A stretch of 64,000 nucleotides of DNA from a virus, in IMG/VR virus record IMGVR_UViG_3300009159_000067, positions 2,922 through 66,921 of that record; one strand, 5' to 3'. The translations under genes were made by a program, and so were the position numbers. Positions 16,112 to 55,469 of the stretch are shown one piece after another (the first letter of the stretch is position 1; each line of letters starts with the position of its first letter). Below the pieces are notes generated by a model. The model searched no databases, was not told the DNA's origin, and saw nothing but the letters and a program-made list of their open reading frames with translations.

Positions 16112-16207
16112 GGTTGAGGTAGCTCAGTTGTGTGGCATTACCACACATAGGTAGAGCATCCGTCTGAACGCGGTGTGCCAGTGGTTCGATTCCACTCCCA
16201 ACCACCA
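16112..16207 (+). tRNA. Aberrant tRNA-Phe(GAA)-like RNA with D-loop hairpin insertion
   Basis: Acceptor GGTTG(A)GG/CCCAACC, T-arm AGTGG-TTCGATT-CCACT, encoded CCA; 6-nt anticodon loop CTGAAC. Confidence 0.65.
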
Positions 16208-25053: not shown

Positions 25054-25820
25054 TATAATTTTTTTAAATCAAATTTTTTAACAAAAGCAGGAAACGCTTC
25101 TTCATATGATTTTTCTGATTCATCAGTAACTTTGTTAGTGAATTGCCAGTTCCAATAAAATGTATCATTTGGTTTGAAACCATAAAAAGTATGAACTCTT
25201 TTTTGAGTATCTACAACATCCATACCTTTCCAGTTTTGTCCTGTGCAGATAAAACCACTTTGAATATTTTCAACAATGTTTGATTCACCTAAAGTTTCGT
25301 GTCTATTTTCAATCCAAGTCAATCTTTCAATCAATTTTTGATAGAACATATTAGCCTGACCCCATCTTACTGAAGTAAAAAATATAACAGCATTTGATTC
25401 AAATAATTCTTTAGATATTTTCCAAAGTTCATCACCTTTTTCATTTACACTAGCCCAACATCTATGATATCCTGTTGGGTTTTTATCTTTATCTTTTAAC
25501 TTGGCTTTCATTAAACCACAGGAGTTACCATCTTTTCTTGATACATTTCCTTCACATGGAACAATATTAAGTTCAGGAACATCTATTAAAACTGATTTAT
25601 CATTTAGATATTCATTGATAATCATAGCAAGAATTGTTGATTTGGGTATGTCCATATCATTTGGATCCCAATTGTATCTGTTTGAACAAGTCAATAATAA
25701 TACCTTATCTAATTTTTGAAGTTCAGATATTGTTTTTTCAAGTTTTTTTAAATTACCTGTAGAATTGTTCTTTTCGGTAACATTATACTTATCAAATAAT
25801 TCTTGTAGTCTATTGTCCAT
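25050..25820 (-). CDS. Flavodoxin-like (NADPH-dependent FMN reductase / iron-sulfur flavoprotein-like) protein
   Basis: LLLTCSNR, I.PCEG, AVIFFTSVRWG...QKLIERL. Confidence 0.65.
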   Translation of the reverse strand: MDNRLQELFDKYNVTEKNNSTGNLKKLEKTISELQKLDKVLLLTCSNRYNWDPNDMDIPKSTILAMIINEYLNDKSVLIDVPELNIVPCEGNVSRKDGNSCGLMKAKLKDKDKNPTGYHRCWASVNEKGDELWKISKELFESNAVIFFTSVRWGQANMFYQKLIERLTWIENRHETLGESNIVENIQSGFICTGQNWKGMDVVDTQKRVHTFYGFKPNDTFYWNWQFTNKVTDESEKSYEEAFPAFVKKFDLKKLY

Positions 25821-25878
25821 TGAATATAAATACTTCGTATATGGTAATAAAAAACCCATCATTTAGATGGGTTTATAA

Positions 25879-26811
25879 TTATGCTCTCATATTTGGCAGT
25901 CTTTGTATGATATTTTCTAAAGTTTCTAAATCTTCAACATTCATAATTTCAGATTCTAATGGCATTGGATACATTTCTTTAAGTTCATAGGGATCAATAC
26001 ATTCTTTATGAACTTGTTGTTGAATCTCATCTGAACATAGATTTTTATTGCTGTGTTCTGAATTTAAAATTCTTTTAATGATGGGAAATAAATAATCGTC
26101 AATATCAAGAGTTAAAAAATCAACTCTTGAATCTTCCGCATTCCAAAAACTAATATCATTTTTATCTGAAATACTTTTGAAAGCCGCAAATTTATATCCG
26201 GTTTTTTTATTTATAAAATAAACTAAAATTCCCTGTCTCCAGTATCTTTCAAAATAATTTTTTTCTTTTTGATAGGTTGTACACCATCTTGTATTTGACC
26301 CGTATTTAATAGACGCAGAAAAAGTCAAAGGTCTCACAATTACCCACTTATCATCTTCAAACTCTTTAATTACTTGTTTCTCCATTCCTTTATCCAACTC
26401 TTTCATTGTTGCAATGGTTATGGCATTCCTTAAGTCATCAATTTCATTATATGATGTTACATCTTTATTTTCAATTTGATTAATATCAATGTAATATATA
26501 AAATCTTTTATGGTTGTAAAAATACCATCATCCCAAAAATCTGAAAGAGTAGTTAATACAAACATTTGCTCTTCATTTAAACCATTGGTTGATATTCCCC
26601 TTCCAATTAAAAGAGAATTTAACTGTAAAACCCCTTTTGCTTGATCTTCTTTATCAACAAATTGTGAATCAAAATCAAATTTTTTATTAAAAAGTTTGCA
26701 AAAAAGAGCTAAATATTTATAACTTTTTGAAGTATCCAATCTAACCATAAGATCAAATAATGACATGTTTAATTGTGGATATTCTTTTTTTAACTCGTCA
26801 AGTCGGGACAT
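25879..26811 (-). CDS. PxTxxASxxYGxxTxWC-domain protein (PcfJ-like)
   Basis: IVRPLTFSASIKYGSNTRWCTT. Confidence 0.65.
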   Translation of the reverse strand: MSRLDELKKEYPQLNMSLFDLMVRLDTSKSYKYLALFCKLFNKKFDFDSQFVDKEDQAKGVLQLNSLLIGRGISTNGLNEEQMFVLTTLSDFWDDGIFTTIKDFIYYIDINQIENKDVTSYNEIDDLRNAITIATMKELDKGMEKQVIKEFEDDKWVIVRPLTFSASIKYGSNTRWCTTYQKEKNYFERYWRQGILVYFINKKTGYKFAAFKSISDKNDISFWNAEDSRVDFLTLDIDDYLFPIIKRILNSEHSNKNLCSDEIQQQVHKECIDPYELKEMYPMPLESEIMNVEDLETLENIIQRLPNMRA

Positions 26812-26858
26812 AATAATATTTTTTTAAAATATAGAGGATTTAAAAATGATAGTCAAAG

Positions 26859-27019
26859 CTGTTGGGGAAGGATTCGAACCTTCACACGGAGATTCAGTAA
26901 TTGACAAAAGTGCTTGCAAGCAGGTGGTCTACCCCAATATCAATTACCTATTTCTTTGTCCGTGCCGTCGGGACTGGACGGTGTGTCTGCCATACTCGAG
27001 AGTTTTTCACCACCCAACA
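26859..27019 (-). tRNA. Giant tRNA-like RNA (161 nt), GUC anticodon, ~80-nt variable arm
   Basis: Acceptor TGTTGGG/CCCAACA, anticodon stem CCGTC/GACGG, T-arm GAAGG-TTCGAAT-CCTTC. Confidence 0.65.
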
Positions 27020-27102
27020 ATTTTTGATTTCAAATAAAAATAATCTATTTGACTTATTAAAACAATATTTTTGTTAAGTTAAATTAGAAGTATTTATTAA
27101 CA

Positions 27103-28095
27103 ATGAAAGAATTAGATTTTCCAATAGAGCGACTTAACTCCTTTTTTGATAAATATATTTTTGAGGTTTATGGACTTGATGAAAATGGTATAGACACTTC
27201 AAATATCCCTTTAAATATTAAAATTCAAATTACTGGTATAAAAGAATATATTAGTTTGGGAAAAGAAACGCCTTTTATTGAATATACTTTATATGTTTTA
27301 CCTCACAAAGAATATTCAAATGTGTATTATCAAGTATTGAGAAAGCATTTTGGTAGAGAAACAGATATAAATACAAGAAGTGATCAATATCAAGATATAA
27401 GGTGGGTAATGAATGAAAAGTTATCTCGAATGTTAAAATATTTTTCAATTGATATGCCAGCAATTTGTAAAAAAGTTATCAATGAAATTGAGCCATTTAA
27501 ATTAAATGAAAATTTAATTGTTGAATCACTTATAAAAGAAGATAAGTATGATTCGATAGTTAGACAAGTTGTTAGGGATATTTTTATGTTATTTAAAAAT
27601 AAAGAACAAGGAAGATTTTACTTGCCACCAGATGTTCACAACGATCAAGAACTTTATTTTTTTGGTGATTCAATATCATTTAATGTTGAACTTGAACTTA
27701 TACCTGATGACAGCGTTGATGGATATGATATTGAATCAAATTTTTATAGGGATGAAGATGTTATGGATATTGCAATAGTATATAACCCACAATATGGTAA
27801 GTCTGTTTTATATAGTTTAATTGGGGATTTAAATGACAATGTGAGACACGAATTACAACATTCGATACAACATTCACAAGAGTATAAGTTTCCAAAAAAA
27901 GAACCAAAAAGTCCATTAAAATACTATACACAACCTCATGAAATAGAAGCCCAAAAAAAAGGATTTAAAAGAGTTGCCAAACTCCAAAGAAAACCTTTAG
28001 AACAGGTTGTTAGAAATTGGTTCAGTAGTCATAGATCAAGACACGGACTAAATGATAAAGAAATAGAAATGGTTGTTAACCAAATTTTAAAATGA
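27103..28095 (+). CDS. Protein with C-terminal HExxH zincin-like domain
   Basis: VRHELQHSIQ...YY..PHEIEA; internal LNE/IVES/IKE sites. Confidence 0.65.
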   Translation: MKELDFPIERLNSFFDKYIFEVYGLDENGIDTSNIPLNIKIQITGIKEYISLGKETPFIEYTLYVLPHKEYSNVYYQVLRKHFGRETDINTRSDQYQDIRWVMNEKLSRMLKYFSIDMPAICKKVINEIEPFKLNENLIVESLIKEDKYDSIVRQVVRDIFMLFKNKEQGRFYLPPDVHNDQELYFFGDSISFNVELELIPDDSVDGYDIESNFYRDEDVMDIAIVYNPQYGKSVLYSLIGDLNDNVRHELQHSIQHSQEYKFPKKEPKSPLKYYTQPHEIEAQKKGFKRVAKLQRKPLEQVVRNWFSSHRSRHGLNDKEIEMVVNQILK

Positions 28096-28850
28096 GTGTA
28101 AGTGATATAATAGTTAAAACATTAAAAAATTCATCATTTAAAGAAGATGGGTTTATTTATAATTTTTATGACGCTAATTATGAGATTAAAGGTAAAATAA
28201 AACCATACCATAATGCCACAGGATATTATAATTTTTTTGTGAATGTAATTTTACCCCAAAAAAACCAATCTTACTCAATAGTTAAATTTGAGTATGATGT
28301 TAACGATTATATTGGACGGTTTTCAAAATATTTTGGACAATCAATATCTTATAAATTACATTTTTTAGTGGATAATAAAGATCCCGAACTTGTTTATATA
28401 AACCCCGAATCACTTTCTGAAATAGTTGATGCAGCAGAACAAAGTATAAAAAAAGGAAAACTTGAATTTGTAAATGATAGTGAATTAACATTTAATATTG
28501 ATATTTTACAACCAAAAAAGAGAGGGTTTACAGAATTTAGTGACTATTCAATTAGTTTCTTTTTTCCATTGAATATTAGTAATGTTTATTATGATGGAGA
28601 AAAAATCGATATTTCAAAATTTGATAAAGAAAAAATTGAAAATTTCACAGGTTACCTTAATGATTTACTTATAGAAGATGATGGATCAAGAGGAAGAATG
28701 GAAAACATAATCTACGATATTTTAGAACCGCAACTCAAATTAAGAAATTGCGACCAATTTGTTCAAGCTAATACATATGTGGTCCAATTATACGGAAAAG
28801 ATGTAAAACCAAGTTGGGGTAATTTTAAGATTGAGGACTTTATCTCTTAA
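28092..28850 (+). CDS. Hypothetical protein
   Basis: ORF overlapping the previous stop. Confidence 0.7.
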   Translation: MSVSDIIVKTLKNSSFKEDGFIYNFYDANYEIKGKIKPYHNATGYYNFFVNVILPQKNQSYSIVKFEYDVNDYIGRFSKYFGQSISYKLHFLVDNKDPELVYINPESLSEIVDAAEQSIKKGKLEFVNDSELTFNIDILQPKKRGFTEFSDYSISFFFPLNISNVYYDGEKIDISKFDKEKIENFTGYLNDLLIEDDGSRGRMENIIYDILEPQLKLRNCDQFVQANTYVVQLYGKDVKPSWGNFKIEDFIS

Positions 28851-48722: not shown

Positions 48723-48840
48723 AGTCAGGTGGCGGAATTGGTTAGACGCAGTGTAAAGTGTTACCGATGTAGATAGGTAACTGGTCACGCAGCGAGATAG
48801 CGTACACTTTCTATTACAGGTTCGAATCCTGTCCTGACTA
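48723..48840 (+). ncRNA. tRNA-scaffold RNA without anticodon arm (branched insert)
   Basis: Leu-type acceptor AGTCAGG/CCTGACT, D- and T-arms intact; middle is a junction with two AGATA-loop hairpins. Confidence 0.7.
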
Positions 48841-55045: not shown

Positions 55046-55469
55046 TGGTGGAGGTGGCGGGAATCGAACCCGCGTCTTTCCTGTTCAACAATAAGTCACT
55101 ACAAGTTTATTTTATTGGTTCTCAACAAACAAATAGAAAGTTCTTATTTTTCCATCAGAACTCACAACTGTGGTCGGTTCCTGTTAAATTGGATTGAACC
55201 GAAAACATCTCCCGACAAATTCTCTGAACTAAATCACGTGGTATTTGTCAAACCTCATGGACTTCTGTTCCAAGGTATATGTCCTTACCGACCCGTAGTT
55301 GTTCTGTACGATTAAGCACCAACAACAGCTTCTTCTCTTGTTAAACCAAGAGCAGCAAGCTTAGCAAATGTATTGCCTGTTATTTTTACCACCGATGTTT
55401 AAAGTCGTAGATGACATCCGACTACTTGCGACCTATTCCTGATACCTGAAATCGAAACCTGTCACCCCC
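55046..55469 (-). ncRNA. ssrA: tmRNA
   Basis: 5' GGGGGTGACAGGTTTCGA, 3' GCGGGTTCGATTCCCGCCACCTCCACCA, G3-U70 pair; tag ORF 55377-55312. Confidence 0.93.

Follow-up and report, generated by a model that had tools for sequence, protein, structure and literature searches.

A family of tRNA-shaped RNAs with aspartate identity nucleotides and a self-complementary arm in freshwater jumbo phages

We examined a 64,000-nucleotide (nt) stretch of viral DNA (IMG/VR record IMGVR_UViG_3300009159_000067, positions 2,922 to 66,921; hereafter the window, in whose numbering coordinates are given) and focus here on a 161-nt RNA element encoded on its minus strand at 27019-26859. The element has the shape of a tRNA with a long arm in its variable region, a conclusion confirmed by comparison with its relatives and not by its own fold. 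On these comparisons it belongs to a genuine, unannotated RNA family of freshwater jumbo phages that is apparently undescribed. The family combines an intact tRNA frame, one retained amino-acid identity, released decoding features and a conserved 80-nt self-complementary domain, which together would make an architecture new to the small, much-studied group of tRNA-like RNAs. We lean towards the reading that the RNA is a processed, non-decoding mimic of tRNA-Asp that self-associates and is probably read by the host aspartyl-tRNA synthetase (AspRS).

Architecture of the RNA

A covariance model built from the relatives (R1, positions 1-171) aligns end to end with 27019-26859 (169.5 bits, E 9.9e-45), and the contig holds a single copy of the RNA. 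Its parts are as follows.

26859-27019, minus strand: whole tRNA-shaped RNA, U1 to G73, 161 nt, as aligned by R1
27013-27019, minus strand: acceptor 5' strand UGUUGGG with U1 and G2, paired with 26860-26866
26986-27007, minus strand: enlarged D loop, inside the 3-bp D stem G10-U11-G12/C35-A36-C37 (GUG/CAC)
26995-27000, minus strand: CUCGAG, a 6-nt palindrome inserted in the D loop; relatives have other palindromes at the same site
26965-26981, minus strand: anticodon-type hairpin CCGUC-CAGUCCC-GACGG, with GUC at 26972-26974
26884-26964, minus strand: variable-region arm of about 80 nt (RNA positions 56-136), in which the base helix and a 10-bp helix covary
26948-26959, minus strand: 5' side of the internal loop of the arm, ACAAAGAAAUAG; the 3' side, UGAAUCU, is at 26890-26896
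26923-26935, minus strand: GGGGUAGACCACC at the arm tip, a candidate hairpin GGGG-UAGA-CC(A)CC whose pairing is not proven
26911-26922, minus strand: UGCUUGCAAGCA, a perfect 12-nt palindrome at the arm tip, the proposed self-pairing site
26867-26883, minus strand: T arm GAAGG-UUCGAAU-CCUUC, the only part matched by the Rfam tRNA model
26858-26866, minus strand: acceptor 3' strand CCCAACA, G73 (26859) and C74 (26858); CCA is not encoded

The cloverleaf elements of decoding tRNA (RF00005) are all present: a 7-bp acceptor, a D stem, a 7-nt loop on a 5-bp anticodon stem, and a UUCRANY loop on a 5-bp T stem. U8 and G9 follow the 5' acceptor strand in the window copy, and the nucleotides of tRNA tertiary contacts are in place (U8, A14, G18, G19, T54-C56 and A58, corresponding to the invariant columns T8, A14, G29, G30 and T-arm GGTTCGA). 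A first-pass annotation, made from the letters of the window alone, had listed the acceptor stem, T arm, anticodon stem and loop, G73 and arm helices on the minus strand; all of these are found within 27019..26859, as are the A33 and C37 that it read in the loop CAGUCCC. Where it described a class-II-style enlarged D region, the enlargement is real, while the stem itself is an ordinary 3 bp and the extra bases precede G18-G19. The loop keeps A14, G18, G19 and A21, and we describe the frame as a class-II-type tRNA frame because the D loop of the shortest relatives is a plain one of 11 nt (AAAUUGGCAAA).

The arm of the window copy has CACGGA/UCCGUG at its base (base helix ACGGA/UCCGU), followed by the internal loop and the 10-bp helix GUAAUUGAUA/UGUCAAUUAC, which includes one G-U pair. 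In the internal loop, the bases G66, A67-A69 and A71 (5' side) and A126-U128 (3' side) change rarely or never among 70 sequences. The tip reads UUGGGGUAGACCACC-UGCUUGCAAGCA-CUUU, with the hairpin UGCU-UGCA-AGCA formed at its end. The block GGGGU[A/U]GACYACC is retained even where the search did not demand it, and in short forms its GGG pairs with CCAC.

Distribution of the family

A 24-nt pattern of the arm tip matched 113 IMG/VR viral contigs and yielded 119 complete copies, every one with 7/7 acceptor pairs, that reduce to 70 different sequences, 147-177 nt long. A further pattern, which used the internal loop as its anchor and placed no demand on the tip, matched at least 119 contigs, and R1 added another 44 copies. 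In total, the set comprises 106 distinct sequences, 144-177 nt in length, and the family occurs on more than 110 IMG/VR viral contigs. Two alignments were used: A1, with the 70 sequences chosen by the tip motif, and A2, with 44 chosen by the internal loop (36 distinct). One copy is present in each of the genomes G000-G003, two of which are complete genomes with terminal repeats (288,673 and 256,444 bp). The window lies on a 66.9-kb IMG/VR viral contig estimated to be 20% complete, and the DNA runs that contain it are labelled freshwater or lake metagenomes.

A blastn search of GenBank phages with 901 nt around the element gave no match, and a search with a 170-nt relative at E <=10 returned only T-arm matches to ordinary tRNAs. 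Among GTDB species genomes the tip pattern matched only one 12.6-kb contig, in a Flavobacterium metagenome-assembled genome, which is at most a faint hint of the host. The literature that we searched holds no description of this tRNA-shaped RNA; its coverage is partial, and supplementary motif lists may name it. The family is abundant in lake jumbo phages yet missed by tRNA finders and Rfam, and it has gone unannotated or ignored in hundreds of contigs.

Covariation supports the cloverleaf and the arm

The window sequence by itself is unremarkable. Its single-sequence fold (-46 kcal/mol) has a z-score of -1.11, and 28 of 200 shuffles fold as well or better. ARAGORN made no call on the element with default settings, nor with introns allowed at the default threshold. 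Rfam at its gathering threshold reported no family on it, and at E <=10 over 26600-27300 gave only a local tRNA match to the T arm (14 bits against a 29-bit threshold). Neither ARAGORN in its mode for transfer-messenger RNA (tmRNA) nor Rfam found a tmRNA there. The unexceptional z-score and the silence of the gene finders would both fit a decayed tRNA gene or a chance fold.

The relatives rule that explanation out. In A1, 97.6% of cells in the model helices are paired; the corresponding figures are 83.1% for shuffles and 38-56% for slid controls. Both sides change in 24 of 38 pairs, a value reached by 0 of 500 shuffles. Such two-sided changes affect 5/7 pairs of the acceptor, 4/5 of the anticodon-type stem, 3/5 of the arm base helix, 7/10 of the 10-bp helix and 3/5 of the T arm; D stem pair 11-24 is CG in 47 sequences and UA in 23. 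The tip hairpin is the only A1 helix that shows no compensatory change, because the search pattern required the tip. In A2 (36 distinct rows), which was fitted to the model and is hence biased towards it, 98.2% of cells are paired and both sides change in 30 of 38 pairs, all three tip pairs included. A mutual-information scan of a fresh MAFFT alignment of 105 sequences recovered the same helices and an additional arm pair, 65-130 (A-U in 93, C-G in 10).

Covariation was one of the checks that the first-pass annotation had proposed, and the cloverleaf and both arm helices pass it in A1 and A2. The annotation had also counted an unconserved insert against its own proposal; the insert is the most conserved part of the RNA. 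These comparisons argue strongly that the cloverleaf and its two-helix arm are under selection. With every helix showing compensatory changes across more than 100 distinct sequences and no shuffle in 500 matching the observed values, we assign next to no probability to decay or chance.

Aspartate identity is kept and decoding marks are lost

The anticodon-type loop is CUGUCUC in 66 of the 106 sequences, CAGUCCC in 13, UCGUCUC in 8, UUGUCUC in 7 and CCGUCUC in 3, with CUGUCCC (2), CAGUCAC (2) and CGGUCCC (1) as rarer forms; four loops were left unassigned by the strict filter, three of which read CUGUCUC by eye, while L137 has a larger loop. Throughout, G34, U35, C36 and C38 are invariant. G73 is present in 105/106 sequences and G2-C71 in 70/70 (A1) and 35/35 (A2). 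Passages of PMC9976931 name G73, G34, U35, C36 and C38 as the five strong aspartate determinants and G2-C71 as a minor one. All of these are fixed or almost fixed in the family. Pair 3-70 is U-A or C-G in A1, and the tmRNA-type G3-U70 is absent there.

The marks of a decoding loop have been released. Among 105 sequences, 78 have U at position 33, 15 have A, 11 have C and 1 has G; at position 37, 2/105 have a purine and 103/105 a pyrimidine. In combination, positions 33 and 37 read UU in 76, AC in 13, CU in 11, UC in 2, AA in 2 and GC in 1. The window copy, with A33 and C37, has neither U33 nor a purine at 37. The variable region of tRNA is 4-5 nt long or an extra arm of up to ~16 added nucleotides in the account given in part of PMC9976931; the ~80-nt arm exceeds the longest natural extra arm about fivefold. 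A normal tRNA-Asp(GTC), with loop CUGUCAC and G1-C72, is encoded in each of the three relatives checked (G001, G002 and G003). Given the loss of U33 and purine 37 and the coexisting normal tRNA-Asp, the RNA is very unlikely to decode, as the first-pass annotation had also judged.

A working tRNA-Asp isoacceptor with an extreme extra arm, read as it is or after the arm is spliced out, would account for the full cloverleaf, the tRNA-like flanks described below, the GUC anticodon and G73. ARAGORN at a 70-80% threshold does propose an intron-containing tRNA, though as Cys(GCA) with a 73-nt intron, and we rejected this model since it cuts covarying helices. The arm is moreover the most conserved part of the RNA and too small for a group I or II intron. 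With U33 missing in 27/105, purine 37 missing in 103/105 and a canonical tRNA-Asp beside it in every relative checked, we regard a decoding isoacceptor as very improbable.

A second tRNA frame that escapes the gene finders bears on the retained loop. It occurs in the window at 48723-48840 (plus strand), directly after tRNA-Trp, and also at L211:727-839 and L210:7502-7628 (G001). Its frame is near-invariant (acceptor AGUCAGG/CCUGACU, A73, D arm GCG-GAAUUGGUUAGA-CGC, T arm ACAGG-UUCGAAU-CCUGU), and hypervariable inserts of 9-121 nt stand in place of the entire anticodon and variable region. Matches to its pattern occur on at least 120 viral contigs, with 89 distinct copies of 73-185 nt among the matches listed, and some contigs have two or three copies with different inserts. 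This second frame looks like a tRNA scaffold with interchangeable cargo. Because it works without an anticodon arm, the frame itself does not require the Asp-like family to keep one, and the fixed GUC, C38 and G73 of that family are the more telling and call for an explanation of their own. The proposal of the first-pass annotation that a tRNA body serves as a scaffold for cargo is for this reason insufficient alone. Its alternative, a putative Asp-tRNA decoy, fits the invariance of exactly the aspartate identity nucleotides.

We grade recognition of the RNA by host AspRS as a conclusion of moderate strength. None of the genomes G000-G003 has a match to the class IIb synthetase core (PF00152), the anticodon-binding OB fold (PF01336) or GatB (PF02934), and any reader would therefore be a host enzyme. 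A gene resembling a CCA-adding enzyme was found only in G002 among the four.

The same loop could instead act as decoy or sponge against a host defence enzyme directed at tRNA-Asp, an anticodon nuclease for instance, with AspRS uninvolved. An Asp-like loop in which positions 33 and 37 are altered would bind such an enzyme yet resist it, and self-association would raise avidity; the GUC is indeed invariant while 33 and 37 vary. These phages have large tRNA sets, and PMC12409363 describes immune systems that target tRNAs and phage tRNAs that counter them. However, G73, G2-C71 and the whole acceptor end are conserved like the loop, which would be needless for an enzyme that reads the anticodon loop alone, and the analyses made identified no tRNA-Asp-directed defence system. 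We hold this explanation to be improbable.

Self-complementary sites

After the GGGGU[A/U]GACCACC block, the arm tip is a perfect palindrome, 8 nt or longer (8-12 nt), in 102 of the 106 sequences. The palindrome is GCUUGCAAGC in 71 and, in 8 more, extended to UGCUUGCAAGCA as in the window copy; GCCGGCCGGC occurs in 12, GCAUGCAUGC, GCUGCAGC and AGCCGGCU in 2 each, and GCUCGCGAGC, GCUGGCCAGC, ACUGCAGU, UCCGGCCGGA and UUCCGGCCGGAA once each. Its central four bases are UGCA in 84, GGCC in 15, CCGG in 2 and CGCG in 1, and 44 different tips were found when the search left the tip free. Tip loop positions 1 and 4 covary (UA in 85, GC in 10), and pairing between them within one chain would leave a two-base loop. 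Since a hairpin needs complementary stems and not a self-complementary loop, the relevant control is how often the loop is palindromic in distinct 10-mers from the same loci that form a 3-bp stem and a 4-nt loop: 364/7294 (5.0%). The computed energy of the 12-nt tip is -2.4 kcal/mol as a hairpin and -20.9 kcal/mol as a two-strand duplex.

The D loop offers another such site. Among 105 full-length sequences, inserts fall into the following classes.

No insert: 33
Conserved hairpin with loop CUCAGUU: 44
Palindrome of at least 6 nt, as called by script: 17
Other hairpins: 11

Judged by eye, 14 of the 17 are genuine palindromes at the D-loop site (L062, L079 and L135 being left out), of 10 kinds with the CUCGAG of the window copy included. 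Relatives have GCGUACGC, GUUCUAGAAC, GCAAUUGC, GCUCUAGAGC, AGUGUAUACACU and GCUUAAGC, or CACGUG, UACGCGUA and GCGCGC in the loop of a hairpin. D-loop hairpin inserts are not unique to the family, since a tRNA of the window that ARAGORN calls Cys(aca) (96 nt, 16112-16207, plus strand, CCA encoded; 16.7 bits with R1) has the hairpin UGUGG-CAUUA-CCACA in its D loop.

Because the tip hairpin and the D-loop CUCGAG covary as palindromes, self-association is indicated. The first-pass annotation had not picked out these two sites as self-complementary. Passages of Kretsch et al. (2025; PMC12286853) argue from palindrome switches for symmetric kissing loops in OLE and GOLLD, contacts that cryo-electron microscopy confirmed, and covarying loop palindromes of that kind are what we find in this family. 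We infer, with good comparative support, that the RNA probably associates with itself through these palindromes. When targets in trans of the tip and internal-loop motifs were sought in 2.7 Mb of loci, only the element's own opposite strand was complementary.

Assembly could also be the whole purpose. In a purely structural RNA the tRNA frame would serve processing and stability, the arm and D-loop sites would build a homo-oligomer, and GUC would make an RNA-RNA contact, either with the invariant GAC of the arm tip or with the GUC of a partner. The covariation of the palindromes supports assembly as such, the tip GAC is invariant, and two related genomes, G001 and G003, encode the cage-forming phage RNA GOLLD. 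We tested and rejected pairing of GUC with the tip GAC, or of position 37 with the base before GAC, as neither shows consistent covariation (for the latter, A with U in at least 66, U with A in 2, A with C in ~16 and U with U in ~12). A structural role would leave G73 and C38 unexplained, and the second tRNA frame shows that a frame needs no anticodon arm. We consider a purely structural RNA unlikely.

Processing signals and expression

The ends of the RNA resemble those of tRNA genes. Of 105 sequences, 92 have U and 11 have C at position -1, and 99 have A at -2; C74 follows position 73 in 106/106, and CCA is encoded in 8/106. Ordinary tRNA genes of G001-G003, 73 in number, follow the U-1 and N73-C74-A pattern too, and in G001 and G003 the element stands at the end of the tRNA array. 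RNase P prefers U at -1. We infer that the RNA matures like a tRNA: it would be excised by RNase P and 3' processing and then given CCA.

In L035, L051 and L113, CUGAUGAG stands right after G73-C74, as in a hammerhead core, where Rfam at its gathering threshold reports no ribozyme. No promoter-like site above threshold lies upstream of the window copy and no terminator downstream of it; several relatives have a hairpin and U-run after the element.

Proposed role

Our best guess at the biological role, weakly held, is that of a tRNA-Asp mimic that takes no part in translation. The RNA would not decode. Host AspRS would bind it and probably charge it. Two copies would join by their tips as a symmetric dimer, and copies that also have the D-loop site, the window copy among them, could form larger assemblies. 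The mimic would engage the host machinery that reads tRNA-Asp off the ribosome, as a dedicated aspartate carrier or a multivalent decoy. Candidate roles are an aspartate carrier for a non-ribosomal reaction, a synthetase-directed mimic and a defence-enzyme decoy.

A more specific form of the mimic is possible, if doubtful. Here the RNA would be a self-assembling Asp mimic, processed and charged and barred from the ribosome, whose two-fold symmetric tip dimer would match the dimeric AspRS and whose D-loop contacts would extend it into chains or rings, capturing or re-routing the synthetase or supplying aspartate for a non-ribosomal use. If true, this would be a new kind of RNA particle.

Several results weigh against a self-associating, synthetase-read mimic. 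The first pair is U1-A72 (70/70 in A1, 34/35 in A2) and replaces the G1-C72 of bacterial tRNA-Asp; according to passages of PMC9976931, G1-C72 and G2-C71 are conserved in bacterial tRNA-Asp, and the strictly conserved G1-C72 helps to position the 3' end in AspRS. G10 is not kept: pair 10-25 is GC in 52 of 105 sequences, AU in 34 and something else in 19. The lack of synthetase, OB-fold and GatB matches in G000-G003 belongs here too. Class II synthetases approach tRNA from the variable-loop side, and an 80-nt arm might hinder AspRS. Four of the 106 tips are not palindromic, three of which also have no D-loop insert; L143 has a single change in its tip palindrome and a D-loop hairpin of the 'other' class. 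The invariance of GUC could instead reflect an RNA-RNA contact, and that of the tip within A1 and of the internal loop within A2 is partly built in by the selection of sequences. Finally, contigs of the RNA libraries X19 and X20 over 25800-28200 cover the neighbouring gene and none covers the element, while X19 has a 1206-nt contig with the element of a relative at depth 16.5, the same piece being present in the DNA run X2. The X19 and X20 result shows neither the presence nor the absence of transcription.

Genomic context

The element sits between divergent open reading frames (ORFs) encoding 310-residue and 330-residue proteins, for neither of which Pfam or PHROGs gave a function. The 330-residue protein has no relatives in viral contigs. 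Relatives of the 310-residue gene are found on 20 viral loci, 7/20 of which have a homologous element just upstream. Clustering of 964 ORFs located within 3 kb of the element in 131 distinct contexts yielded no synthetase, no transferase and no co-inherited protein; the neighbours are lineage-specific only, the 310-residue protein family being an example. The intervening signal in the window is as follows.

26828-26856, minus strand: promoter-like TTGACT-17-TATATT of the next gene (the 310-residue ORF, 26811-25879), matching 10/12 consensus positions; not part of the RNA

The element ends two bases before the -35 box of this site, and a strongly conserved promoter-like box, UUUUUUGACU-N17-UAUAUU, precedes the 310-residue gene in all relatives (L002-L021) whether or not the RNA is present. 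Conserved non-coding blocks, AGGUUGACUGGAAU...AACUGUAGAAAGGGC...GUACGUGAUCGGU, lie 3' of the element (for example in L024, L031, L069 and L128), and another, AUAAGGUUUCCAGUGAGUUAGUU, lies 5' of it (L015, L018, L041, L097). These blocks may be further small RNAs or processing signals.

Rfam scored seven tRNA genes and a tmRNA in the window. The tmRNA (55046-55469, minus strand, 95.6 bits) has the tag peptide GNTFAKLAALGLTREEAVVGA, and the relatives L210, L126 and L072 also have one. GOLLD was not found by Rfam in the 64-kb window; it is present at L210:2884-3295 (G001, 260 bits) and L216:1-336 (G003, 227 bits), adjoining tRNA arrays. In G001 a 73-nt tRNA-like gene with a 4-base 'anticodon' call (gtga) directly follows GOLLD.

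Comparison with known systems

Among the systems that come close are bacterial and phage tRNA-Asp (GUC), with which the family shares the cloverleaf, the tertiary nucleotides, G73, G2-C71 and a loop of the form Y-N-G-U-C-N-C with C38; the tRNA-Asp of the phages themselves has CUGUCAC where most family members have CUGUCUC. The family differs from tRNA-Asp in U1-A72, a variable position 33, a pyrimidine at 37, the 3-bp class-II D stem, the 80-nt arm and optional D-loop inserts, and in not being scored as tRNA by Rfam or default ARAGORN. According to a passage of PMC9976931, the Asp/Glu-tRNA amidotransferase recognises U1-A72 and has G1-C72 as its anti-determinant; we record this as an observation only.

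tmRNA, YrlA and the 3' tRNA-like structures of plant viruses resemble the family as mimics that recruit RNase P, the CCA-adding enzyme or synthetases. tmRNA differs in its G3-U70 alanine identity and its tag reading frame with pseudoknots, and the plant-virus structures in their position at genome 3' ends and their pseudoknotted acceptor. YrlA, a bacterial Y RNA, is topologically permuted and differs likewise; Rfam gave no match to it on the element. tRNAs diverted from translation also exist, as in the staphylococcal cell-wall tRNA-Gly. A phage case, in which Mom of phage Mu uses Gly-tRNA and thus a charged tRNA outside translation, is described in part of PMC13219725. These examples show aminoacyl-tRNA as a non-ribosomal substrate; the diverted tRNAs are normal-sized, unlike the family, and no transferase candidate was found near the element.

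T4 species 1 and 2 (rnaC and rnaD) are likewise small stable RNAs within a phage tRNA cluster, and rnaC has a T-arm-like CCGGGUUCGAAUCCCGG. Their function is, to our knowledge, not known. We rejected homology, as R1 on the T4 locus matched only tRNA-Leu and tRNA-Gln and neither rnaC nor rnaD (L179:1909-2172), and no homologous arm is present.

With GOLLD, ROOL and OLE, as described in passages of PMC12286853, the family shares its phage-borne setting near tRNA islands and the switching loop palindromes that mark symmetric contacts, here predicted ones. Those RNAs are RNA-only homo-oligomers of 400-800 nt or more with unrelated folds and no tRNA frame, whereas oligomerisation here would follow from the palindromes; the element has no Rfam match to any of the three families. 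At ~150-170 nt, the RNA offers a small, tractable system for the role of phage structured RNAs near tRNA islands, as for GOLLD and ROOL, for small symmetric RNA assemblies built from palindromes and for the targeting of a specific synthetase by phages.

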